This document shows, piece after piece, positions 1,844-47,582 of a DNA stretch of 64,000 nt. Every line of letters begins with the position of its first letter. Positions within the stretch are counted from its first letter, which is position 1. This DNA comes from Patescibacteria group bacterium (GTDB taxonomy: Bacteria; Patescibacteriota; Patescibacteriia; Magasanikbacterales; GWA2-37-8), in contig JAKLGL010000001.1 in the NCBI GenBank assembly GCA_022710645.1, positions 20,614-84,613 on the forward strand, given 5' to 3'. The notes under the pieces are model-generated. The model was not told the DNA's origin. It worked only from the letters and a program-made list of their open reading frames with translations, and searched no databases. The position numbers were made by a program, and so were the translations under genes.

Positions 1844-3307
1844 ATGTTTGAACAATCATTAAAAAATATAGACGATATTCTTCACCAAGATTCTGGTTGT
1901 GCTACTGAACTTGATTATATTGAACAAACCTCATGGATTTTATTTTTGAAATATTTGGATGATTTGGAAAAAGATAGAGAAACCTCGGCAAAATTGGCAG
2001 GTAAAAAATATGAATATATTATTGACCCTCAATATCGTTGGGAAAAATGGGCGATGCCAAAAAATAAAGATGGCAAAATTGATCACAACACTGCTTTGTC
2101 AGGGGATGATTTGAAAGATTTTGTTAATGGTAAATTATTTCCTTATCTTAAAAAATTTAGAGCAGATGCATCAAGTCCGGATACGATTGAATATAAAATT
2201 GGGGAAATTTTTAGTGAATTAAAAAATAGAATAGAGAGCGGTCACAGACTTCGTGAAATTTTGGAAATAGTGGACGCGCTACATTTTCGTACTGATGCGG
2301 AAAAACACGAACTTTCTCATCTTTATGAAAGCAAAATTGCCAAAATGGGCAATGCTGGACGTAATGGTGGGGAATATTACACTCCAAGACCGCTTATTCG
2401 CACGATTGTAAAAATTGTCGCGCCGAAAATTGGAGAGAAAATTTACGACGGAGCATGTGGCAGCGCCGGCTTTTTGGTGGAAGCTTTTGATTATCTCAAA
2501 TCTGAAAATAAAGATCGTTCTACAAAAAATGATGAAATTTTGCAAAAGAAAACTTTTTACGGCAAAGAAATAAAATCCCTGGCTTATATCATCGGCACAA
2601 TGAATATGATCTTGCATGGCATTGAAGCGCCAAACATCACTCATACCAATACCTTGGCGCAAAATATCAATGATATTCAAGAAAAAGACAGGTTTGATGT
2701 TATCCTTGCCAATCCGCCATTTGGCGCAGGTATTGGCCGAGAAATTCAACAAAACTTTCCCATCAAAACAGGTGAGACTGCTTTTCTTTTTCTTCAACAC
2801 TTTATCAAAATTCTCAAAGCCGGTGGGCGAGCGGGTATTGTTATCAAAAATACTTTTCTTTCCAATACCGACAATGCTTCGGTTAGTTTGCGTAAACTAC
2901 TTTTAGAAAATTGTAATTTGCATACGATTTTAGATTTACCAGGTGGCGCTTTTCAAGGCGCTGGTGTAAAAACTATAGTTTTATTTTTTGAAAAAGGAAA
3001 ACCAACGAAAAATGTTTGGTATTACCAACTCAGCCTTGATCGAAATCTTGGCAAAGGTAATCCACTTAACGAAAATGACTTAGCGGAATTTGTAAAATTG
3101 CAAAAAACAAAAGCAGACAGTGAAAACTCTTGGAGTTTAGATGTGTCTAAAATTGATCAAAATACTTTTGATTTATCAGTTAAAAATCCGAATAAAAAAG
3201 AGGAAAATGTTTTGAGAGAACCGAAGGAGATTTTGGAGGAGATGGAAGAAATAGACGAGGAAAACAAAATAATATTTAAAAAAATCAAAAATTTAGTACA
3301 TGACTAA
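1844..3307 (+). CDS. hsdM: type I restriction-modification system, DNA methyltransferase subunit M
   Basis: HsdM-like N-terminal domain. The N6-adenine methyltransferase motif NPPFG is present, as is an AdoMet-binding DGACGSAGFL motif. Confidence 0.9.
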   Translation: MFEQSLKNIDDILHQDSGCATELDYIEQTSWILFLKYLDDLEKDRETSAKLAGKKYEYIIDPQYRWEKWAMPKNKDGKIDHNTALSGDDLKDFVNGKLFPYLKKFRADASSPDTIEYKIGEIFSELKNRIESGHRLREILEIVDALHFRTDAEKHELSHLYESKIAKMGNAGRNGGEYYTPRPLIRTIVKIVAPKIGEKIYDGACGSAGFLVEAFDYLKSENKDRSTKNDEILQKKTFYGKEIKSLAYIIGTMNMILHGIEAPNITHTNTLAQNINDIQEKDRFDVILANPPFGAGIGREIQQNFPIKTGETAFLFLQHFIKILKAGGRAGIVIKNTFLSNTDNASVSLRKLLLENCNLHTILDLPGGAFQGAGVKTIVLFFEKGKPTKNVWYYQLSLDRNLGKGNPLNENDLAEFVKLQKTKADSENSWSLDVSKIDQNTFDLSVKNPNKKEENVLREPKEILEEMEEIDEENKIIFKKIKNLVHD

Positions 3308-4802
3308 TGCTGATATTAAAATTTATTTTTCTGATTTTTTTGAAGTAGATCATAATAAATTAGAAAGTTATGGCGCTCTTGATATCTCGTTATTGTCAGA
3401 TAATCCAGCTTTTATTGACCCATTTTTAATATTTTATAGTAAAAATAAAGATTATCAACAATTACACCAATCTATTGTCAATTATTTAATCTTTTTAAAA
3501 AAACAAAGTGACGAAGGTAATTTTTCTAATTTATTTTATACATTTCCAGAAGTAAATGAAGTTTGGCTTGGTTTTTCAAAAAGTGGTAATAAAGGACTCG
3601 GTTTAGGACCATATTTTGCTAATGAATTAAATGAAAATCTAATCAATATTTTTAAGGGTAATAAAAATAAAATTACAAAAAGTACACACATTGAAAAACT
3701 TTGTATTATTGGAGAGCGAATTGGAGCGGATAAAATAAGTGATTTTACACTAAATTTGATAAAACATTATTTAGTAAAGTATACTGAAAAATTTGCCATT
3801 GAAAATTTAGACAATAAATACATTTCAAAATTTAGAATATCAAAATTATTTTTTGATTTCGAAAAAAGTAATTGGGTTGATGGTGAAGCTGTCCTTCCAA
3901 TAAATCCGCATGATAAGTCGAACTATGTTTTATTAACACCAAAAGATATTCTAGTGAAAGAGGAAGGGTGGATTTCAGTTAATGATTTTTTAAATAATGA
4001 CGGTTTAATTATAAGTAATATTTCAAATGATGATTTGCGTTATAAAATAAACCAATACTTTCTTTCTTTGATTCCTGATAAGCGTAATAGAAATGGTAAA
4101 CCTGAAAAAGACTTATCGAAGAAAAATACGAGAAATGCAATGAAAGAAACGGCAAAGAAATATCCCGAATTAATCGATTATTTTATTAAATGTAAAGAAG
4201 AAAACGGGCAGGGTGCGGTTGAAGCTAGTTTAGTTGATAATGACTTTTTGAAACAAGTGTTCTATCTTGGTATTAAAGCTATTACTAAAAATTTAAAAAT
4301 TGAAGGTTTTTATAAAACAAATATAAAAGACAATTCATTTTTAGAAACAATAGATAAAATTAAAAAATTTAAGTATGTAATGGAAAAAAGAGATGGGTAT
4401 ACTGTATTTTGGGATGATAAAAAATTAAGAAAATTTAAAGAGCCAGATGTAGACAAAATGATTGATTTAGTTTTCGCTTCTTCTGATTTTTCCATAGATA
4501 AACAAGTTAATAACGGAAGAGGCTCGTCGGATATTAAGGTTTCAAAAGGATCCGCTGATTGTACTATTATAGAAACAAAACTTGCAAAAAACCCTCAATT
4601 AGAAAATAATTTACAAAAACAGTTAAATATTTATAAAGAAGCAAATAATACAACAAATGGTGTTTATGTAATTTTATATTTTAATGAAGATGAATTTAAA
4701 AAGGTGCAAAAAATATTCAAAAAATTAGGAATAGATGATTGTGTTGACAAATGGATATTTTTAATTGATTGTAGAAAGAAAATATCCGCCTCAAAGGCTT
4801 AA
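3300..4802 (+). CDS. uncharacterised 500-aa protein embedded between hsdM and hsdS, with a C-terminal PD-(D/E)xK-like motif (putative nuclease-fold defence protein)
   Basis: It overlaps the hsdM stop by 8 bp, which suggests translational coupling. The C-terminus has '...EPDVDKMIDLVF...(about 30 aa)...CTIIETKLA', a D...ExK pattern. There is no Walker A. Confidence 0.55.
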   Translation: MTNADIKIYFSDFFEVDHNKLESYGALDISLLSDNPAFIDPFLIFYSKNKDYQQLHQSIVNYLIFLKKQSDEGNFSNLFYTFPEVNEVWLGFSKSGNKGLGLGPYFANELNENLINIFKGNKNKITKSTHIEKLCIIGERIGADKISDFTLNLIKHYLVKYTEKFAIENLDNKYISKFRISKLFFDFEKSNWVDGEAVLPINPHDKSNYVLLTPKDILVKEEGWISVNDFLNNDGLIISNISNDDLRYKINQYFLSLIPDKRNRNGKPEKDLSKKNTRNAMKETAKKYPELIDYFIKCKEENGQGAVEASLVDNDFLKQVFYLGIKAITKNLKIEGFYKTNIKDNSFLETIDKIKKFKYVMEKRDGYTVFWDDKKLRKFKEPDVDKMIDLVFASSDFSIDKQVNNGRGSSDIKVSKGSADCTIIETKLAKNPQLENNLQKQLNIYKEANNTTNGVYVILYFNEDEFKKVQKIFKKLGIDDCVDKWIFLIDCRKKISASKA

Positions 4803-4809
4803 TATTTTT

Positions 4810-5922
4810 ATGAAAAATATTATTACTGATAAAAATAATTGGCAAACAAAAAAACTTGGTGAACTTTGCGATATTACAACTGGCAATTCAAATACAGTCG
4901 ATGCTGTCAGTGATGGTCAATATGCTTTTTTTGATCGATCGAAAATAATTAAAAGGAGTCATAATTTTTTGTTTGATTCGGAAGCGTTGATTATTCCAGG
5001 AGAAGGTGCTGAATTTTTCCCTAGATATTATTCAGGAAAATTTAATTTACACCAAAGAGCTTATGCTTTGTTAAATTTTAATAAAAATACAAATGTTAAA
5101 TTTGTAGAATATTTTTTAATTTTTGAACACAAATATTTTGAAAGGGTTGCAGTTGGAGCTACTGCAAAGTCTTTAAGAAGAAGACATTTTGAAGATTTAG
5201 AAATTCCGCTTCCACCCCTCCCCGAACAACATCGCATCGTAAAAATTTTAGATGAAGTTTTTGAAAATATTACGGAAGCGAAAGAAAACGCTGAAAAAAA
5301 TCTTCAAAATTCAAAAGATCTTTTTGAATCGTATTTACAGAATGTATTTGCGAAAAAGGGGAATGGTTGGGAGGAAAAGACTTTAGGCGAGGTGTGTAGA
5401 TATGATAAAACACCATATAAAAAAAGTAATTTACCCTATGTTGGACTTGAAGATATAGAATCAAATTCAGGTAAATTTTTAGGTTCTTTGGATTCAAAAA
5501 AAGTAAAAAGTAATACTTTTCATTTTACACCAGAACATGTTTTATATGGCCGTTTAAGACCTTATTTAAATAAAGTGTTACTTCCAGATTTTGAAGGTCA
5601 TTGTTCAACAGAGATTTTTCCTATAAAGCCCAGCAAAGATTTATATAGAGGGTTTTTATTTTTTTGGCTTATTTCTAAAAAAATAGTTAAAAAAATAAAT
5701 GCCACTTGGACTGGAGCTCGAATGCCTAGGGCAAACATGAATGAAGTATTAGATTTTATAATCCCAATACCATCAATATCCGAACAAAAATCCATCGTTG
5801 CCAAACTTGACGCGCTTTCGGAACAAACTAAAAAACTGGAAGAAATTTATAAACAAAAATTAGCGGATTTGGAGGAATTAAAAAAGTCGGTGTTGAAAAA
5901 GGCTTTTAGCGGGGAATTATGA
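4810..5922 (+). CDS. hsdS: type I restriction-modification system, specificity subunit S
   Basis: Two target-recognition-domain halves separated by the conserved central 'LPPLPEQHRIVKILDEVF' helix, with a C-terminal 'LEELKKSVLKKAFSGEL'. The start was chosen at MKNIITD; the ORF track's 4765 start overlaps the preceding gene. Confidence 0.85.
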   Translation: MKNIITDKNNWQTKKLGELCDITTGNSNTVDAVSDGQYAFFDRSKIIKRSHNFLFDSEALIIPGEGAEFFPRYYSGKFNLHQRAYALLNFNKNTNVKFVEYFLIFEHKYFERVAVGATAKSLRRRHFEDLEIPLPPLPEQHRIVKILDEVFENITEAKENAEKNLQNSKDLFESYLQNVFAKKGNGWEEKTLGEVCRYDKTPYKKSNLPYVGLEDIESNSGKFLGSLDSKKVKSNTFHFTPEHVLYGRLRPYLNKVLLPDFEGHCSTEIFPIKPSKDLYRGFLFFWLISKKIVKKINATWTGARMPRANMNEVLDFIIPIPSISEQKSIVAKLDALSEQTKKLEEIYKQKLADLEELKKSVLKKAFSGEL

Positions 5923-6473
5923 AAGCCAGTGAATATCAAAATCAAATCGCAGAACTTTTAAAACAAATTTTTCCGGCTGAATTGGTAAAAAAGGAATGGG
6001 ATTCGTCTGTGACTTTTAATGACTTGTCTCATAATAAAATGGTTTATGCTCCACGTATAGATGTTGCAATTGGCCCGTTTAATAATCGTTTTAATTTAGA
6101 TGTTGGAGAAATGCCGAGCGATTTGATGAAAAAACATCCTTTTACTAGAATGATGTTTGAAAGGCATTATAATGATATAGATGATTTTGATAAGGTATGG
6201 AATAGTTTTTCTCGTTGTTATTTAGCGATCGAAGTGGAGTTTAGTGGTTCAGCAAAACATATTTTTGGTAGCATAATTAATGCAGTTACAAATGGATCTT
6301 TAGCTTTTATTATTACAAATAAAGAAAATTACAGTAAAGTAGATCGAATTATTAAGTATATTTGGCGACAAGAAAATCAAGAGGTAATAGAATTAAATAC
6401 TTTGAAAAATTTATTGGTATTTGAGGAAGGGGAATTTTTGGAAGTATTGAGGGAATATTTAAAAAAAGTATAA
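5919..6473 (+). CDS. hypothetical protein translationally coupled to hsdS (ATGA overlap), with a possible restriction-endonuclease-like fold
   Basis: 184-aa ORF whose start overlaps the hsdS stop by 4 bp. It has 'YAPRIDVAIGP' and 'LAIEVEFSGSAKH' acidic motifs. The fold assignment is speculative. Confidence 0.5.
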   Translation: MKASEYQNQIAELLKQIFPAELVKKEWDSSVTFNDLSHNKMVYAPRIDVAIGPFNNRFNLDVGEMPSDLMKKHPFTRMMFERHYNDIDDFDKVWNSFSRCYLAIEVEFSGSAKHIFGSIINAVTNGSLAFIITNKENYSKVDRIIKYIWRQENQEVIELNTLKNLLVFEEGEFLEVLREYLKKV

Positions 6474-6557
6474 AATAGGTATAACTAGACTTATTTAAGA
6501 AATTTTATACAAGAGAATTGTAAACAATTTATCTATAATTAGCCAAAAAAAGCAGTA

Positions 6558-6617
6558 TTGACATTACTTATATAATGTAATATACTAGTAATATAACATA
6601 CTAGTATAATCTAATAT
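6558..6617 (+). promoter_or_regulatory. Promoter region (TTGACA-17-TATACT, with a second TATAAT at 6605-6610) carrying two copies of the 8-bp palindrome TACTAGTA
   Basis: TTGACA at 6558-6563. The palindromes are in 'tatactagtaatataacatactagtataat'. The ATG at 6618 has no RBS and sits about 7 nt after the TATAAT, so the mRNA may be leaderless. Confidence 0.45.
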
Positions 6618-8051
6618 ATGAATCAAGAATTAATACAATATTTACAAAAACAAATAAGAACAGTTGAAGATAGGTTATATAAATATACTCACAATACCCA
6701 AGGAGGTAAATTACCTCAACGTTTTTTGTTTGTTAAAATTCAAAAATATCTCAATGATTTTTTAGGTAAAATTTCAGAAAACAGATTAATTATTATTCCT
6801 GGATTACGAGGTGTAGGTAAAACTACTTTGATGGCTCAAATTTGTAGTGATTTAATTGTAAATAAAAAAAATGTAAAAACATTATTCCTGTCATTAGATG
6901 AAGTAAAAAATCTTTTTAATGTTGGGATATCTGAAGTTATGCAAGCATATGAAGAAATTTTAGGTGAAGATTTGGAAAGTTTATCAGAAAATGTTGTTAT
7001 TTTTTTCGATGAAGTGCAAAGTGATCCAACCTGGGCAAAAGCATTGAAAATACTTCATGATAAAACATCCAAAATATTCTTTTGTTGTACAGGATCTTCA
7101 GCAGTAGTATTGCAATCAACCCCAGATATAGCTAGAGGTAGGGCTATATTTGAAAGAATGACCCCGATGTGTTTTATGGAATTTGAAATGGTTAAAGACA
7201 AAGTTTTTCCTACAAAACAATTAAAAAAAGATATATGGGATGCTGTTTATTTTTCCAAAGATGCTGTAGAGGTTTATGATAAATTATCAAAACTACAAAG
7301 TTTGGTAAATAATTATTGGAGCAAGGTGGATAGAAGAGATATGGAGAAATTTTTAGCATATGGATCTTTGCCATTTACTTTACAACTTCCAAACGAAACT
7401 ATTATTAATGATTCTATTTCTTTGTTATTGGATGGAATTATTAAAAAAGATTTACCGATGCTGAATGGTTTTGATGTTAAAACGTTATCACAAGTCAAAA
7501 GATTACTTTTTATTCTTGCTGAAAATGACACGACCAGTATCAATAAATTAGAGGAAATATTAGGTATTGATAGACTAACTATAGCGAGTTTATTGGATGC
7601 TTTAGAAAAAGCAGAATTGATTATAAAAATTTCGGCTTATGGTTCCAATATGTCGGTGGCAAAAAAACCAGCAAAATATCTTTTTATGTCTTCAGCTGTG
7701 CGTATGTCATTTTTTTCAATATCTGGAAATGAAAATACTTTTTCTACAAGAAAAGGAAAGCTCTTGGAAGATTCTGTAGGTACACATTTATATAGAGAAT
7801 TTATACTTAAAAATGATGGCGCTTTACGATATGATAGTTCGCAGAATGGCGCAGATTTTATTTTGCAAATTGCTAATAAAAAACAGATAATAATTGAAGT
7901 TGGTTTGGGTAAAAAAGACAGAAAACAAATTTTAAATAGCATGGAAAGAATTGATTCAGATTATGGCATAGTTTTTTCAAGTAATCCTTTAGTTATTGAT
8001 CAAGATAAAAAAATAGTCAATGTACCTTTGGATTATTATTTTTTAATGTAA
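6618..8051 (+). CDS. AAA+ ATPase of the AAA_14/DUF4143 (COG1373-like) type, embedded in the type I R-M locus
   Basis: Walker A 'GLRGVGKTTL' and Walker B 'VIFFDEVQ'. The C-terminal region 'NGADFILQ...IIIEVGLGKK' resembles the DUF4143 nuclease-like module. Confidence 0.7.
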   Translation: MNQELIQYLQKQIRTVEDRLYKYTHNTQGGKLPQRFLFVKIQKYLNDFLGKISENRLIIIPGLRGVGKTTLMAQICSDLIVNKKNVKTLFLSLDEVKNLFNVGISEVMQAYEEILGEDLESLSENVVIFFDEVQSDPTWAKALKILHDKTSKIFFCCTGSSAVVLQSTPDIARGRAIFERMTPMCFMEFEMVKDKVFPTKQLKKDIWDAVYFSKDAVEVYDKLSKLQSLVNNYWSKVDRRDMEKFLAYGSLPFTLQLPNETIINDSISLLLDGIIKKDLPMLNGFDVKTLSQVKRLLFILAENDTTSINKLEEILGIDRLTIASLLDALEKAELIIKISAYGSNMSVAKKPAKYLFMSSAVRMSFFSISGNENTFSTRKGKLLEDSVGTHLYREFILKNDGALRYDSSQNGADFILQIANKKQIIIEVGLGKKDRKQILNSMERIDSDYGIVFSSNPLVIDQDKKIVNVPLDYYFLM

Positions 8052-8055
8052 TCGT

Positions 8056-10395
8056 ATGAATGAATCAGAAACACGAGCTGAACTCATTGATCCCAAACTG
8101 AAAGCTAGTGGTTGGGGAGAAATAGAGGGCTCAAAAATTTTACGTGAATTTCGAATTACTGATGGACGTATTCAAACAGGTGGCACACGCACAAAGCCGG
8201 AAATAGCCGACTATATTTTGGTTTATAAAAATCAAAAGCTTGCGGTGATTGAAGCAAAAAAAGAAAGTTTGTCGGCTAGCGAGGGTGTAGCTCAAGCTAA
8301 AACTTATGCGGAAAAATTACAGATTGATTTTACTTATTCCACCAATGGCAAAGCAATTTACGAAATTTCAATGAAAACAGGTAAAGAAGGATTAGTGCGA
8401 GATTTTCCGACCCCCGACGAATTATGGAATAGAGTAAATGCAAAATCAAATGAATGGAAAGAAAAATTTGCAACTGTGCCAAACGAGGGAGATTATGGTA
8501 GTCGTTATTATCAAGAGATTGCGATAAACAATGTTTTGAATGCTGTGGCTGAAGGTAAAAATAGAATTCTTTTGACTATGGCAACTGGTACGGGTAAAAC
8601 CGCGGTAGCTTTTCAAATTGCTTGGAAACTTTTTCAAACGCGTTGGAATTTACAAAGAAATGGCGAACGCCGACCGAGAATTTTGTTTTTAGCTGATAGA
8701 AATATTTTGGCCGACCAAGCTTACAATGCTTTTTCTGCTTTTAAAGAAGACGCGCTTGTTCGAATTAATCCACTTGATATTCGTAAAAAGGGCAAAGTGC
8801 CAACTGGTGGAAGTATCTTTTTTACAATTTTTCAAACTTTCATGAGTGGTCCGAATAATACTTCATATTATGGAGATTATCCAGCGGACTTTTTTGATTT
8901 TATTATTATTGATGAGTGCCATCGTGGTGGAGCAAATGACGAAAGTAATTGGCGAGGAATTATGGAATATTTTGCTCCAGCAGTTCAACTTGGTTTAACC
9001 GCTACCCCACAAAGACGAGACAACGTTGATACCTATAGATATTTTGGGGAACCAGTTTATATTTATTCCCTCAAAGAAGGCGTAAACGATGGATTTTTAA
9101 CCCCGTTTAAAGTAAAAAGAATCAAAACTACCTTAGATGACTATGTTTATACGGTAGAAGATCAGATTGTGGAAGGGGAAGTTGAAGAAGGAAAAATTTA
9201 TGAAGAAGAAGATTTTAATAGAATTATAGAAATTCAAGAAAGAGAAGCAAAACGTGTAAAAATCATGTTTAGTGAAATAAATCAAAATGAAAAAACCATT
9301 GTGTTTTGTGCTACTCAAAGTCATGCTGCGGCTGTTCGCGATTTGATCAACCAATTGAAAGAAAATAAAGATCCAAATTATTGCGCTCGTGTAACAGCCA
9401 ATGATGGCGCGCGAGGAGATCAATTTTTACGTGATTTTCAAGATAATGAAAAAACTATTCCAACAATTTTGACCACTTCGCAAAAACTCTCAACTGGTGT
9501 GGATGCTCGCAATGTTCGCAATATTGTGTTGATGCGACCGGTAAATTCCATGATTGAATTTAAACAAATTATTGGACGCGGAACTCGTCTTTTTGATGGA
9601 AAAGAATTTTTTACTATTTTGGATTTTGTAGATGCTTATAAAAATTTTTCTGATCCAGCTTGGGACGGAGATCCTGTAGAAGTGATTGAAGAAAAACCTA
9701 CTAAAAAGAAGGTTGATAAAATAAAAGAGCCCAAAGCAAAATACGAACCGATTAGCGAAGAAGGAGAAGGCGAAGAACCAAAAAAGAAATTGGTTATTAA
9801 ATTAAGAAATGGAAAAGAACATGAAATTCAACACATGGTCTCAACTTCTTTTTGGAGTGCAGATGGCAAACCAATCACTTTGCAAGAATTATTAAATAGT
9901 ATGTATGAAAAATTGCCAGAATTTTTCAAAAATGAAGACGATTTACGTAGAATTTGGTCTAACCCTATTACTCGTAAAGCATTATTAGAAAAAATAGCTG
10001 ATGCAGGATATGGAAGAGAAGAATTGGAAACATTGCAAAAAATGATTGATGCAGAAAATAGCGATTTATTTGATGTTTTGTCTTTCTTTTTATATTCAGT
10101 TAAACCGATCACTAGAGAACAAAGAGTGGAAAAATCAAAGAAAACCATTTTTGATAAATTAGACAATGAACAAAAAGAATTTTTAGAATTTGTTTTGCAA
10201 AAATATATTGATAATGGCGTGGAAGAGTTGGAAGAAGAAAAATTACCTTTGTTGTTGAATTTAAAATATCATGCGATTGCCGATGCTATTAATCAGCTTG
10301 GTGATGTGGATAAAATTCGTTCGGTATTTTTTAGTTTCCAAAAGGAACTATATACTAAAGAAAAAATTAGTAATTTGTTTAGATGTTTTATTTAA
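8056..10395 (+). CDS. hsdR: type I restriction enzyme, R subunit (EcoEI-like short form)
   Basis: N-terminal 'ETRAELIDPKLKASGWG' HsdR_N motif. SF2 helicase motifs 'MATGTGKT' and the DECH box 'IIDECHRGG'. The C-terminal domain is EcoEI-R-like. Confidence 0.9.
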   Translation: MNESETRAELIDPKLKASGWGEIEGSKILREFRITDGRIQTGGTRTKPEIADYILVYKNQKLAVIEAKKESLSASEGVAQAKTYAEKLQIDFTYSTNGKAIYEISMKTGKEGLVRDFPTPDELWNRVNAKSNEWKEKFATVPNEGDYGSRYYQEIAINNVLNAVAEGKNRILLTMATGTGKTAVAFQIAWKLFQTRWNLQRNGERRPRILFLADRNILADQAYNAFSAFKEDALVRINPLDIRKKGKVPTGGSIFFTIFQTFMSGPNNTSYYGDYPADFFDFIIIDECHRGGANDESNWRGIMEYFAPAVQLGLTATPQRRDNVDTYRYFGEPVYIYSLKEGVNDGFLTPFKVKRIKTTLDDYVYTVEDQIVEGEVEEGKIYEEEDFNRIIEIQEREAKRVKIMFSEINQNEKTIVFCATQSHAAAVRDLINQLKENKDPNYCARVTANDGARGDQFLRDFQDNEKTIPTILTTSQKLSTGVDARNVRNIVLMRPVNSMIEFKQIIGRGTRLFDGKEFFTILDFVDAYKNFSDPAWDGDPVEVIEEKPTKKKVDKIKEPKAKYEPISEEGEGEEPKKKLVIKLRNGKEHEIQHMVSTSFWSADGKPITLQELLNSMYEKLPEFFKNEDDLRRIWSNPITRKALLEKIADAGYGREELETLQKMIDAENSDLFDVLSFFLYSVKPITREQRVEKSKKTIFDKLDNEQKEFLEFVLQKYIDNGVEELEEEKLPLLLNLKYHAIADAINQLGDVDKIRSVFFSFQKELYTKEKISNLFRCFI

Positions 10396-42985: not shown

Positions 42986-44758
42986 TTACACGATAAAACC
43001 CCCGGCTTGTATATGCCAAAGTTTAGCATAAAGACCGTTTGCTTTGATCAAATCACTATGGTTTCCTTCTTCGATTATTTTTCCTTCTTCCATAACAATA
43101 ACTCTATCCATTTTGGCAATGGTTGATAATCGATGAGCGACAACTATCACTGTTTTTTCTTTCATCAAATTTTCCAAAGCTTTTTGAATCAACTGTTCAG
43201 ACTCGGAATCAAGCGAAGAAGTGGCTTCGTCCATTATCAAAATAGGCGCGTTTTTCAAAATCGCTCGAGCAATAGCCACGCGTTGTCTTTCACCACCGGA
43301 AAGCTTGATACCTCGTTCACCGACTTCAGTATTATAACCTTCCTTTAATTTAATGATAAAATCATGAGCATAAGCTTTTTTGGCCGCTTCTTCAACTTCT
43401 TCTTTGGTAGCACCTTTCTTACCATAAGCAATATTTTCAAAAAGTGATCGGTGAAACAAAGCCGGATCTTGAGGAACGAATGAAATATTTTCCCATAAAC
43501 TTTCTTTGGTAACTTTGGAAATATCTTGTCTGTCAATATTTATTTTTCCTTTATTCAAGTTATACATGCGTAATAGGAGTTTTATTACTGTAGATTTTCC
43601 AGAACCGCTTGGACCGACTAAAGCAAGTTTTTCATTATCTTTAACCGTTAAAGAAAAATTTTCAAATATTTTATTATTTTCTTTATAACCGAAATTTACT
43701 TTATCAAATACTATTTCTCCTTTGGTAACTTTGATATTTTTGGCATTTTCAATATCCTTAACCTCGGTTTCTTTGGTAATTATCGCAGTCATTTCTGTAG
43801 CATCGGCCATGGATTCATAAAGTCGTTGAATGGATCTTCCCAACCCCCAAACATTCATCATAATCATCACCACATAAGCTTGAATCATCACAAAATCACC
43901 GATGGTCAAGATATCTTTTTGAAAAAATCCGATAGCCAAATAATTGATACCAACTTCCAATAAAATAAACAAGAAACCTTGAATAGCAAAAAACAAAATA
44001 CTATAACGCCAACTTTTCAAATTGAGTAAGCGAATAGTTTCATTTTTATTTTCTAAATTTTTTATTTCTTCTTCCGTTTTTCCAAAAAGTTTAACATTGG
44101 AGTAGTTAGCGAAAACGTCAGCCGCATATCCGGTAGTCTTATTACCTTCTTTGTTGCTTTCAATATCTATTTTCATTTTTCCTTTTAACACTAGTAAATT
44201 CAACAAAATAAAGAATAACAACCAAACCAAAACACTGTAAGCCAAAATCGGATTACGTCCATATAAAACCACACAAATACCGCCGGTGCCTATAAATAAA
44301 TTACTTAATTCAAAAAATATAATATCATTAAGTGTAAAAAACGCTCCAGCAAATTTGTTTATTTTTCGAACCAAAGATCCGATAAATTGATCATTAAAAA
44401 AAGAAAAAGAATGTTCCAACATGCGAATGACGCAAAATTGTTGAATATCTTTATCACCATATGTTTCAAAATAACTAACAACAAAAAAATACGCTCGTTG
44501 AAAAATGAAAGATACTAATTTCAGAACAAAAACAATTAATAAAACTTTTATTGCAGTATCAAAAATACCAACAGACAAGAAATCAACTATCTTTTTATAA
44601 TAAATCGGAACAATAATTTCCAAAACCTGGTTAATGACGGTAAAAATAACCATCAATACCAAAAATTGCCATCTTTTTTTGTAGAAAGAGGCAAAAATCC
44701 TCAGGGTTTGTTTTACCAAACCGAAATCCAATTTTTCTTGTTTTTCTTGTTCTTCCAT
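42986..44758 (-). CDS. ABC exporter, fused permease/ATPase (MsbA/MdlB-like)
   Basis: Six-TM N-domain. C-terminal NBD with Walker A 'GPSGSGKST', signature 'LSGGERQRVAIARA' and Walker B 'ILIMDEATS'. Confidence 0.85.
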   Translation of the reverse strand: MEEQEKQEKLDFGLVKQTLRIFASFYKKRWQFLVLMVIFTVINQVLEIIVPIYYKKIVDFLSVGIFDTAIKVLLIVFVLKLVSFIFQRAYFFVVSYFETYGDKDIQQFCVIRMLEHSFSFFNDQFIGSLVRKINKFAGAFFTLNDIIFFELSNLFIGTGGICVVLYGRNPILAYSVLVWLLFFILLNLLVLKGKMKIDIESNKEGNKTTGYAADVFANYSNVKLFGKTEEEIKNLENKNETIRLLNLKSWRYSILFFAIQGFLFILLEVGINYLAIGFFQKDILTIGDFVMIQAYVVMIMMNVWGLGRSIQRLYESMADATEMTAIITKETEVKDIENAKNIKVTKGEIVFDKVNFGYKENNKIFENFSLTVKDNEKLALVGPSGSGKSTVIKLLLRMYNLNKGKINIDRQDISKVTKESLWENISFVPQDPALFHRSLFENIAYGKKGATKEEVEEAAKKAYAHDFIIKLKEGYNTEVGERGIKLSGGERQRVAIARAILKNAPILIMDEATSSLDSESEQLIQKALENLMKEKTVIVVAHRLSTIAKMDRVIVMEEGKIIEEGNHSDLIKANGLYAKLWHIQAGGFIV

Positions 44759-44824
44759 ATATAAAATAGATTAACTGACTTATTTTACCTTAAATTAAGA
44801 AAAAATTCAAATAAATAAAGGTAT

Positions 44825-44852
44825 TTGACAAAATTTTAGTCTATGCTACAAT
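44825..44852 (+). promoter_or_regulatory. sigma70-like promoter TTGACA-16-TACAAT upstream of clpB
   Basis: Read from the sequence. The CIRCE-like element follows immediately. Confidence 0.5.
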
Positions 44853-44853
44853 A

Positions 44854-44880
44854 TTATCACTCTACTCTATGGAGTGATAA
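44854..44880 (+). promoter_or_regulatory. CIRCE-like inverted repeat TTATCACTC-N9-GAGTGATAA (putative HrcA operator)
   Basis: A perfect 9-bp inverted repeat with a 9-nt spacer. It matches the CIRCE consensus TTAGCACTC-N9-GAGTGCTAA at 7 of 9 positions per arm. It sits between the promoter and clpB. Confidence 0.55.
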
Positions 44881-44948
44881 TAGCTCGTCCTGGAGTTTTT
44901 CTGTCCCTTATGGACTTTATGGACTTTATAGACTTTTAACTTATTTAT

Positions 44949-47582
44949 ATGTTTCCAAACAATTTTACCCACAAATCTCAAGAAATAATTCAACTTGCAG
45001 CACAAATTGCCGGGGCTAACGGACAACCTCAAGTGGAACCCCCTCATTTAATATTAGCCATGTTGCAAGATGAAGAAGGTATAGTGTCTTCGATTTTTAG
45101 CAAATTAAACATTTCTCTTGCCAATATTCATGCAGATATGGAAAAATTGGTAAACAAATTACCAAAAAATCCCGGCGCTTCTCCCCTGCTTAACAACGGT
45201 CAATTGATGTTGTCACAAGCTATGGTTTTTATCATGCAAAATTCCGCAGAAATCGCCAAAAAAATGGGTGACGATTATATTAGTGTGGAACATTTATTTT
45301 TATCTCTTTTGAGCGGAAAAAATCCCATAAGCGAGCTATTGTCGGTTTATAAAATAAACTATGATGAAATTTTAAAAGTATTGGCTTCTATCCGTGGAAA
45401 TCAAAAAGTAGATTCTCCCGAACCGGAAAGCAAATACAACGCTTTGCAAAAATATGGAAAAAATTTAACCGAACTTGCACGAAAAGAAAAAATAGATCCG
45501 GTGATAGGTCGTGACGATGAAATTCGTCGTGTGATGCAAATACTCACTCGCCGGACCAAAAATAATCCCGTATTAATCGGCGAACCAGGCACGGGAAAAA
45601 CAGCTATTGCCGAAGGTCTGGCTCAAAGAATCATCAATAACGATGTTCCCGAATCGTTAAAAAATAAAGAATTGATAACACTGGATATTTCCGCTTTGGT
45701 TGCCGGGTCTAAATTTCGCGGTGAGTTTGAAGATCGTCTCAAAGCCGTATTGAAAGAAGTTAATGCCGCAAACGGTAAAATAATTTTGTTTATTGATGAA
45801 TTGCACACTATTGTCGGAGCCGGAAGTTCCGAAGGTTCTATTGATGCGGCCAATATGCTCAAACCCATGCTTGCTCGCGGCGAATTACGCGCTATCGGCG
45901 CCACCACTCTCAAAGAATATCAAAAATATATTGAAAAAGATGCGGCTTTAGAACGTCGTTTTCAACCGGTAATAGTAGTCGAACCCAATGAAGAAGACGC
46001 TATCGCTATCTTACGCGGAATTAAAGAAAAATACGAAGTTCATCATGGTGTCCGTATTACCGATTCGGCGATTGTTTCCGCTGTAAAACTTTCGGAACGT
46101 TATATCTCCGATCGTTTTTTACCGGATAAAGCCATTGATTTGGTAGACGAAGCCGCTTCCGCTTTGCGTTTACAAGTAGAATCAATGCCCGAAGAGTTAG
46201 ATCGTCTGAAACGTCAAATAATGAAATTGGAAATTGAAAAAAGGGCTTTAGCGAATGAAAAGACCGAAGATGTCAAGGAACAACTTTTCAAATTGGAAAA
46301 AGAACTTGCCGAAACAAAAGAAAAAGCTACAGAACTTGAAGCCAAATGGAAAAATGAAAAGGAGGCTATTGAAAAAATTCACGATTTAAAAAAAGAAATA
46401 GACAAAACTAAACAACAAGCCGATATTGAGGAACGTAAAGGCGATCTGCAAAAAGTCGCCGAGTTGCGTTATGGAAAAATTCCGGAATTGGAAAAAGAAG
46501 TTAAAAATAGCGAAAAAAAATTACGTGAAATGCAAAAAAATCGCGGCATCTTAAAAGAAGAAATTACGGAAAACGATATAGCAACCGTAGTCGCCCGTTG
46601 GACCGGTATTCCGGTAACCAAAATGTTACAAAGCGACACGGAAAAACTTGCTCACATGGAAGAAGAGCTGAAAAAACGTGTTATCGGACAAGACGAAGCC
46701 GTTTCCGCGGTTTCTCGAGCTATTCGTCGTTCTCGAGCCGGAATCTCCGAACCAAACAAACCTATAGGATCGTTTATTTTCTTGGGTCCGACAGGGGTAG
46801 GTAAAACGGAATTAGCAAAGACTTTGGCGGAATTTCTATTTGATACACCGGAAGCTCTGGTGCGCGTGGACATGAGCGAATATATGGAAAAACATAGCGT
46901 TAGTAAAATCATAGGTTCTCCGCCGGGATATGTGGGTTATGACGAAGGCGGACAGTTAACGGAAATAGTTCGTCGTCGACCATATAGTGTAATTTTGTTT
47001 GATGAAATCGAAAAAGCTCATGGGGATATTTTCAATATCATGTTACAGATACTTGACGATGGACATATAACCGATGCTAAGGGACGTACGGTTAACTTCA
47101 AAAATACGGTTATTATTATGACAAGCAATATCGGAAGCGAATCAATATTAAATTTACGCAAAAACAGCGAATTTGGATTTACTTCCAACAATAAAAACCG
47201 ACAAAATGAAGAAAATAAAATAAAAGAAAAAATAACCGATTCTTTACGGGACCATTTCAAACCGGAATTTCTCAATCGTATTGATGAAACGATAATTTTC
47301 CATTCTCTAAACGAAAAAGATATAGAAAAAATAGTGGAATTACAACTTCTTCAAGTGGAAAAACGTCTGGCGGAAAAGAAAATCTATCTTGCTTTTGATG
47401 AAAAAATCAAAAAACATCTGACTGAAAAAGGTTATGATGTAAACTATGGAGCCAGACCTCTCAAACGAGTCGTTCAAAACGAACTCTTGGACAAACTTTC
47501 TTTATTGATTATCGAGGGTAAAATCAAAGAAGGACAAAAAGTCAAAATATCTCTGAACAAAAATGAAATCACGATAAAATAA
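44949..47582 (+). CDS. clpB: ATP-dependent chaperone ClpB
   Basis: Clp N-domain, two AAA+ modules ('[10 protein letters not shown]', '[11 protein letters not shown]') and an intervening coiled-coil M-domain. Length 877 aa. Confidence 0.9.

Follow-up and report, generated by a model that had tools for sequence, protein, structure and literature searches.

A perfect palindrome just downstream of the promoter that precedes clpB in a Candidatus Magasanikbacteria bacterium is, judging from comparative sequence analysis, very probably an HrcA operator (CIRCE). Its symmetric G-to-T/C-to-A spelling is the clade's usual form at all promoters predicted to be HrcA-controlled. The whole stretch of DNA analysed, 64,000 nucleotides in length, is referred to as the window; for the genome from which it derives we infer the HrcA regulator and further operator sites from relatives with ClpB 65-89% identical. 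An earlier note on this DNA had proposed an HrcA operator on clpB, and the proposal is supported, as the variant precedes hrcA, groES, dnaK, hsp20, clpP and clpB in relatives. The variant spelling, whose presence on clpB the same note had called noteworthy, is that of the clade's normal predicted operator.

Promoter and operator architecture upstream of clpB

The clpB gene (44949-47582, + strand) encodes a protein of 877 aa carrying Clp_N, AAA, AAA_lid_9, AAA_2 and ClpB_D2-small, the full ClpB domain set. An intergenic region (44759-44948) separates it from its divergent neighbour, an ABC-transporter gene (42986-44758, - strand). The best promoter-like site of this region lies 97 nt upstream of clpB and comprises a -35 hexamer TTGACA (44825-44830, + strand), a sigma-70 consensus match that is kept in relatives, and, after a 16-nt spacer, the -10 hexamer TACAAT (44847-44852), which is part of an extended -10 element TGcTACAAT (44844-44852, + strand; TG at 44844-44845). 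With 11 of 12 matches to the sigma-70 consensus, the near-consensus promoter TTGACA-16-TACAAT that had been placed directly before the palindrome was confirmed, and the left arm TTATCACTC begins 1 nt past the -10 hexamer.

The predicted operator, a T-variant of the CIRCE type (44853-44881, no strand assigned), reads A-TTATCACTC-N9-GAGTGATAA-T. Direct reading and pattern search both gave TTATCACTC-TACTCTATG-GAGTGATAA at 44854-44880 as a perfect inverted repeat with 0 mismatches, comprised of the left arm TTATCACTC (44854-44862), the spacer TACTCTATG (44863-44871) and the right arm GAGTGATAA (44872-44880), while the flanking A44853 and T44881 lengthen the arms to 10 bp. The CIRCE consensus of the HrcA-controlled groESL and dnaK operons of Bacillus subtilis is TTAGCACTC-N9-GAGTGCTAA, from which the palindrome differs by 2 mismatches in 18 positions, arranged symmetrically, i.e. 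a match of 8 of 9 positions per arm. The earlier description of a perfect inverted repeat resembling CIRCE therefore stands, while its figure of 7 of 9 matches per arm was a miscount. As in B. subtilis, 9-bp inverted arms flank a 9-bp spacer, 16 of 18 bases agree, and the element is positioned at or just downstream of a sigma-70-type chaperone promoter; unlike B. subtilis, arm position 4 is T (A in the right arm) in place of G (C), throughout the clade. Searches with the variant and with canonical CIRCE found no match in the 64-kb window other than this palindrome, even at up to 3 mismatches. At that tolerance, dinucleotide shuffles put the number of matches expected by chance at 0.05 (variant) and 0.01 (canonical CIRCE).

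The transcription start is predicted inside the left arm, so that the operator spans approximately -6 to +23 and most of the palindrome would be transcribed. In the resulting RNA the arms pair to form a 9-bp hairpin at the mRNA 5' end. The palindrome could accordingly be read as mainly an RNA element, a 5'-terminal stem-loop setting the stability or translation of clpB mRNA, all the more since the G-to-T/C-to-A change relative to CIRCE preserves pairing. CIRCE has reportedly been seen to influence mRNA stability in B. subtilis. We hold this reading to be very improbable. A search for a terminator found no T-run after the hairpin, and the clpB leader had no Rfam match at gathering thresholds, the permissive mode returning just chance-level matches (E ~0.3); the sequence comparisons described below also argue against it. 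Predicted RNA structure of the leader was no better than that of shuffled sequences (z = -0.69), with the AUG unpaired. An RNA thermometer or riboswitch in the leader was rejected on the same observations, i.e. no Rfam match, ordinary folding and a start codon left free of pairing. A role of the palindrome in controlling the divergent ABC-transporter gene was likewise rejected, as the promoter-like site facing that gene (44782-44810) does not overlap the palindrome; it is further disfavoured by the upstream neighbour of clpB, which varies among relatives.

Conservation of the operator at clpB in related genomes

At least 15 Magasanikbacteria-like clpB loci (ClpB 62-73% identical to the window's) share, upstream of the gene, the succession TTGACA, 16-17 nt, -10 hexamer, 1-4 nt, palindrome. 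The -10 hexamer is TACAAT in loci L063, L238 and L239 and TATACT or TATAGT in the others, and L239 has TGt where the window has TGc before TACAAT. Beyond the palindrome, the relatives' leaders extend for 4-139 nt with no common sequence and no Shine-Dalgarno motif. The corresponding remainder of the window's leader (44882-44948, + strand) is AT-rich, without a Shine-Dalgarno motif, and its sequence is not kept in relatives. Only 7 of 59 window genes have GGAG, GAGG or AGGA 4-20 nt before the start codon, so that an AT-rich clpB leader lacking such a motif is normal for this organism. On the same count, translation initiation in this organism seems to be mostly Shine-Dalgarno-independent.

The closest relatives available, L238 (ClpB 89% identical) and L239 (86%; GCA_036744835.1), share with the window the gene order AMMECR1, ABC transporter, clpB, D-Ala-D-Ala carboxypeptidase and LigB. 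The -35 and -10 hexamers and both palindrome arms are identical in all three, while the 9-nt spacer differs (TACTCTATG in the window, TCTGTTATG and TCCGTCATG in the sister species) and the leader is unalignable. Arms that stay invariant around a freely changing spacer characterise a protein-binding site, not an RNA helix.

An unselected sample of clpB genes was obtained from a metagenome ClpB scan, which was dominated by the universal DMSEYMEK motif and whose relatives of the window's ClpB were at most 66% identical. Canonical CIRCE was located within 130 nt upstream in 9 of 74 unrelated clpB loci of this sample, from diverse metagenomes. The earlier note had found CIRCE on clpB noteworthy; these canonical sites, together with the published Mollicutes cases discussed below, do not bear that out.

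Distribution of the variant across reference genomes

A scan for the exact variant covered 185,579 reference genomes, one per species (596 Gb), in which our own arithmetic puts chance matches at ~10-20, and yielded at least 120 loci. The neighbour gene was defined as the first open reading frame within 300 bp on either side, with open reading frames clustered. Among the 120 loci listed, 113 adjoin heat-shock genes, namely groES (49 loci), clpB or a clpC-like gene (27), an hrcA-like gene (23), hsp20 (8), dnaK (4) and clpP (2), with Pfam assigning Cpn10, HrcA, Clp ATPase, HSP20, HSP70 and CLP_protease to the neighbour representatives. Counted from record titles, ~85 of the 120 listed loci belong to Patescibacteria (Magasanikbacteria, Peribacteria, Saccharibacteria and Paceibacteria-type), a total that takes in ~27 TPA assemblies titled 'uncultured Gammaproteobacteria'. 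These assemblies were counted as Patescibacteria because, where the clpB locus was the one matched, their ClpB is 66-72% identical to the window's.

Nine genomes among the matches listed carry the variant at two heat-shock genes. The pair is clpB and hrcA in CAZHYG (L010 and L030), JBAZIZ (L102 and L108) and JAZDMW (L091 and L057), clpB and groES in CAZEYR (L093 and L101) and JABIGQ (L024 and L009), and hrcA and groES in LBTN (L038 and L059), JACKFN (L066 and L061), CAZTEU (L099 and L029) and CAZMEW (L049 and L122). Furthermore, a sample independent of the pattern was assembled by fetching Magasanikbacteria-type hrcA loci by protein similarity (L123, L129, L210, L220, L226 and L232). The exact variant was present just upstream of hrcA in all six, where it heads hrcA-grpE-hsp20-dnaK-dnaJ clusters. 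Upstream of the hrcA operon, relatives carry yidC and a Band_7 gene. Each relative that was examined had an hrcA gene, seen at 23 loci of the pattern scan and at 7 loci retrieved through protein similarity. Several Magasanikbacteria hrcA operons also encode a NUDIX-GrpE fusion (PF00293 + PF01025) of 288-312 aa with the NUDIX domain N-terminal (L123 6691-7557, L129 6800-7708, L225 4746-5618 and L236 6740-7678), and a plain GrpE of 184-190 aa is found in L210, L220 and L232.

The listed sites also bear on the RNA reading of the palindrome. Over at least 120 sites the arms are invariant in sequence, beyond what complementarity would demand, and the loop varies freely. With respect to placement, the 120 listed sites either abut the -10 hexamer, as is typical of clpB and groES, or overlap the core promoter, the latter at 16 of the 23 hrcA sites according to a promoter scan. 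Moreover, in ~20 of the 120 listed sites a -35-like TTGAC was read by us within the 9-nt spacer. Part of the palindrome must then lie upstream of the predicted start at sites of these two kinds, which argues against a function exerted mainly in the transcript.

Non-Patescibacteria among the listed loci were Rhodobacteraceae, Salinibacter/Salinivenus and Peptoniphilaceae, almost always at groES, indicating that the T spelling is not exclusive to Patescibacteria. The individual groES sites are L005, L055, L058, L060, L089, L104, L107, L110, L114 and L116 in Rhodobacteraceae, L014, L026, L052, L115, L117, L120 and L121 in Salinibacter/Salinivenus, and L044, L071, L082 and L109 in Peptoniphilaceae/Helcococcus. 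Spacers of the Salinibacter group mostly fit ACCNNTGGC, with GCCACTGGT in L117 and GCCGGTGAC in L120 as variants.

Several records recovered by the scan carry unexpected titles. Approximately 27 are titled 'MAG TPA_asm: uncultured Gammaproteobacteria bacterium' (e.g. L003, L004, L010, L013, L015, L017, L021, L022, L029, L030, L032, L036, L037, L039 and others), L007 is titled 'Candidatus Udaeobacter sp.' and L011 'Bdellovibrionales'. Those with a clpB or hrcA locus (e.g. L003, L007, L010, L021, L030, L032 and L039) encode either the short HrcA or a ClpB of Magasanikbacteria type, 66-72% identical to that of the window, and the rest of the oddly titled records were represented by just the palindrome beside groES. 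The Gammaproteobacteria, Udaeobacter and Bdellovibrionales labels of these records look wrong.

Predicted HrcA of the Magasanikbacteria and other Patescibacteria

The predicted HrcA proteins of Magasanikbacteria and other Patescibacteria are 224-284 aa in length, compared with 338 aa for T. maritima HrcA (1STZ). Examples of such short genes are L030 6962-7639 (- strand), L039 6351-7034 (+ strand), L123 6001-6687 and L129 6001-6738, with ~25 more. The clade protein is ~110 residues shorter than the canonical one. It retains the winged helix-turn-helix (wHTH) and a GAF-like core, and ~100 residues are missing between the wHTH-proximal part and the C-terminal GAF-like part; the missing stretch is apparently the inserted dimerizing domain of 1STZ. 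Family membership was examined on the protein of a relative (P0001, locus L030). The Pfam model PF01628 (HrcA) was matched at 60-80 bits against a cut-off of 22, while TIGR00331 gave 142-169 bits, short of its cut-off of 197.2, and this low score accounts for the NCBI names hypothetical, DeoR or winged-helix protein. The clade wHTH matched that of 1STZ with E = 1.8e-27, and an AF2 model (pLDDT 93, pTM 0.89) had 1stz_A as its best match (E = 2.5e-14; TM 0.79 when normalised to the length of the query, 0.57 to that of the target).

Given that the clade's HrcA-like protein is this much shortened and falls under the TIGR00331 cut-off, the palindrome might be bound by a regulator other than HrcA, with the G-to-T change having shifted specificity. 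We rate this as highly unlikely. The variant also stands before hrcA, where hrcA-grpE-(hsp20)-dnaK-dnaJ operons begin, which is the classical arrangement for autoregulation, and the clade protein and T. maritima HrcA share a strongly conserved DNA-binding wHTH. The same T-variant, furthermore, stands at groES in Rhodobacteraceae and Salinibacter/Salinivenus, whose HrcA we take to be full-length. Binding by HrcA is thus the preferred reading, with the qualification that the mode of regulation of the truncated clade protein could differ from the B. subtilis model.

The regulator gene of the window's own genome was sought in several ways. The window with 10 kb of flank on each side lacked hrcA, grpE, dnaK, dnaJ, groES/EL, clpP and hsp20, as well as any second CIRCE-like site, and tblastn of the relatives' HrcA, GrpE, DnaK, DnaJ, GroES, GroEL, ClpP and Hsp20 against the window returned just an MreB/DnaK cross-match. 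Among the best 120 matches of HrcA protein searches, extending down to ~54-55% identity, none was on a contig with this genus's ClpB; the HrcA candidates retrieved come from organisms other than this one, sampled in groundwater and elsewhere. As the ClpB of this genus is just 71-75% identical to ClpB outside it, its own HrcA probably falls just below the ~54-55% reached by these searches, and its not being retrieved is not evidence of absence.

Proposed regulation and comparison with known systems

The HrcA/GroE paradigm was established in Bacillus subtilis (Zuber and Schumann 1994; Mogk et al. 1997, both as cited in PMC4245973 and PMC7737663). By analogy with that model, an HrcA dimer on the operator would block RNA polymerase at normal temperature. 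GroEL/ES would keep HrcA active until unfolded proteins titrate GroEL/ES, whereupon HrcA would lose activity and leave the site, and clpB would be derepressed together with groESL, dnaK and other chaperone genes. The 9-bp hairpin with which the transcript would begin may secondarily influence mRNA stability.

As in B. subtilis, the element precedes hrcA-grpE-dnaK and groES-groEL in relatives. Unlike the B. subtilis system, the gene predicted to be regulated here is clpB; B. subtilis is not known to have a clpB. Unlike canonical HrcA, the clade protein lacks the ~100 residues that apparently form the inserted domain of 1STZ.

A closer parallel is found in Mollicutes, whose HrcA regulons (M. gallisepticum, S. 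melliferum and M. pneumoniae) include CIRCE before clpB, lon and dnaK (PMC4245973, PMC5138195, PMC7737663), with clpB being CIRCE-controlled in M. gallisepticum and S. melliferum (PMC4245973, PMC5138195). Both groups have reduced genomes and, by prediction in the Patescibacteria, HrcA acting on clpB and protease genes besides dnaK. In contrast, Mollicutes belong to another phylum and spell the canonical G, and the palindrome-adjacent set of Patescibacteria also takes in groES, hsp20, clpP and clpC-like genes. Sites with up to 2 mismatches to CIRCE have been treated as functional (PMC4245973, PMC5138195).

No paper was found, in the literature searched, on the T-variant string or on HrcA/CIRCE in CPR, Patescibacteria or Saccharibacteria. 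The clade-level picture of the T-variant is unreported in that literature, yet a respelling at one position is within the accepted tolerance of the motif, and the finding itself holds nothing surprising to the specialist. It fills in a small piece of regulation in the candidate phyla radiation, in that the heat-shock genes of Patescibacteria, including clpB, clpC-like genes, hsp20 and clpP, appear to answer to one HrcA repressor via a slightly respelled CIRCE. There is also value for annotation: strict scans for canonical CIRCE will miss the clade's regulon, and its short HrcA falls under the NCBI family cut-off and goes by the names hypothetical, DeoR or winged-helix.

Tandem repeat in the clpB leader

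The earlier note had also pointed to a tandem repeat of the ttatggact type in the leader. The repeat is real and was located by Tandem Repeats Finder at 44908-44936 (+ strand), where TTATGGACT is present in 3.2 copies with a period of 9, 95% matches and a score of 51. The successive copies are TTATGGACT, TTATGGACT and TTATAGACT, followed by TT. Arrays scoring at least 50 number 3 in the window compared with a mean of 0.83 in 30 shuffles, suggesting a real duplication that is not exceptional, and in this AT-rich genome such short arrays occur frequently (54 at a score of at least 30 in the window). The unit TTATGGACT showed no enrichment elsewhere in the window, and the repeat was identical, not polymorphic, in two independent metagenome samples. 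It was absent from the leaders of all relatives compared (at least 17), including the sister species with ClpB 89% and 86% identical. Most likely the repeat is a recent replication-slippage duplication in a hypervariable leader, without a conserved role.

A functional repeat, acting as a leader peptide, as a translation tuner of variable copy number or as the site of a second, CtsR-like regulator, is unlikely by comparison. Owing to its period of 9, the repeat yields an in-frame mini-ORF, MDFMDFIDF*, of 9 codons (44910-44939, + strand), which ends 9 nt short of the clpB ATG; the closest GGAG is found 13 nt before the mini-ORF's own ATG. Such a reading frame is speculative and probably not meaningful, and MDFMDFIDF was not conserved in the leaders of relatives. 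The sister species L239 has an unrelated tandem repeat, AATCTTAT x5.1 (2461-2501; Tandem Repeats Finder score 54-61), at the corresponding leader position, directly before the start codon, while no tandem repeat was detected in the clpB leader of L238. Against a function stand the lack of the repeat in at least 17 relatives' leaders, its identity in two samples, the unit's lack of enrichment, the ordinary RNA structure of the leader and the abundance of short arrays.

With respect to a second regulator, the CtsR box consists of tandem heptads (A/G)GTCAAA, 3 nt apart and thus with a 10-nt period, upstream of clp genes, and dual HrcA + CtsR control exists in some Firmicutes. The CtsR operator of Firmicutes is, like the leader repeat, made of direct repeats in front of a clp gene, and the minus-strand unit of the leader repeat, AGTCCATAA, loosely recalls the CtsR heptad. 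However, neither the unit sequence nor the period of 9 rather than 10 fits, and the repeat is not conserved. A CtsR operator was rejected on these grounds, i.e. the unit TTATGGACT, the period of 9 and the lack of conservation in relatives.

A more elaborate proposal takes the leader repeats as a slippage-prone, lineage-specific tuner of ClpB translation, possibly including the mini-ORF MDFMDFIDF, that would have arisen independently in two species (TTATGGACT x3.2 in the window and AATCTTAT x5.1 in L239) and be layered on an HrcA switch whose operator is the T-variant and whose HrcA is without the inserted domain. We give this proposal slightly less credence still than a functional repeat in general; slippage without a conserved role remains the preferred account of the repeat.

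Genomic surroundings of clpB

The window has a G+C content of 36%. Its ClpB is identical to NCBI HRY36317.1, named 'ATP-dependent chaperone ClpB' of Candidatus Magasanikbacteria bacterium in a MAG TPA record, and the same ClpB is also encoded on two JGI metagenome contigs, Ga0116154_10000058 (201 kb) and Ga0209310_1000252, as well as on one contig of 563 kb.

A type I restriction-modification cluster occupies 1844-10395 of the window and is comprised of hsdM, a gene for a DUF8370/DUF8371 protein, hsdS, a gene for an AAA_14/nSTAND3-like ATPase, and hsdR. It is situated in a stretch of low G+C (0.285 at 4001-8000 versus 0.36 overall) and may be an acquired island. On contig Ga0116154_10000058, ~5-8 kb past the right end of the window (L229 1995-4924), an SLT lytic transglycosylase gene is followed by one for a 630-aa homologue of TrwB/VirD4-like coupling proteins; the pair adjoins a ribosomal-protein and rpoA cluster and may be what is left of a module for conjugation or type IV secretion.
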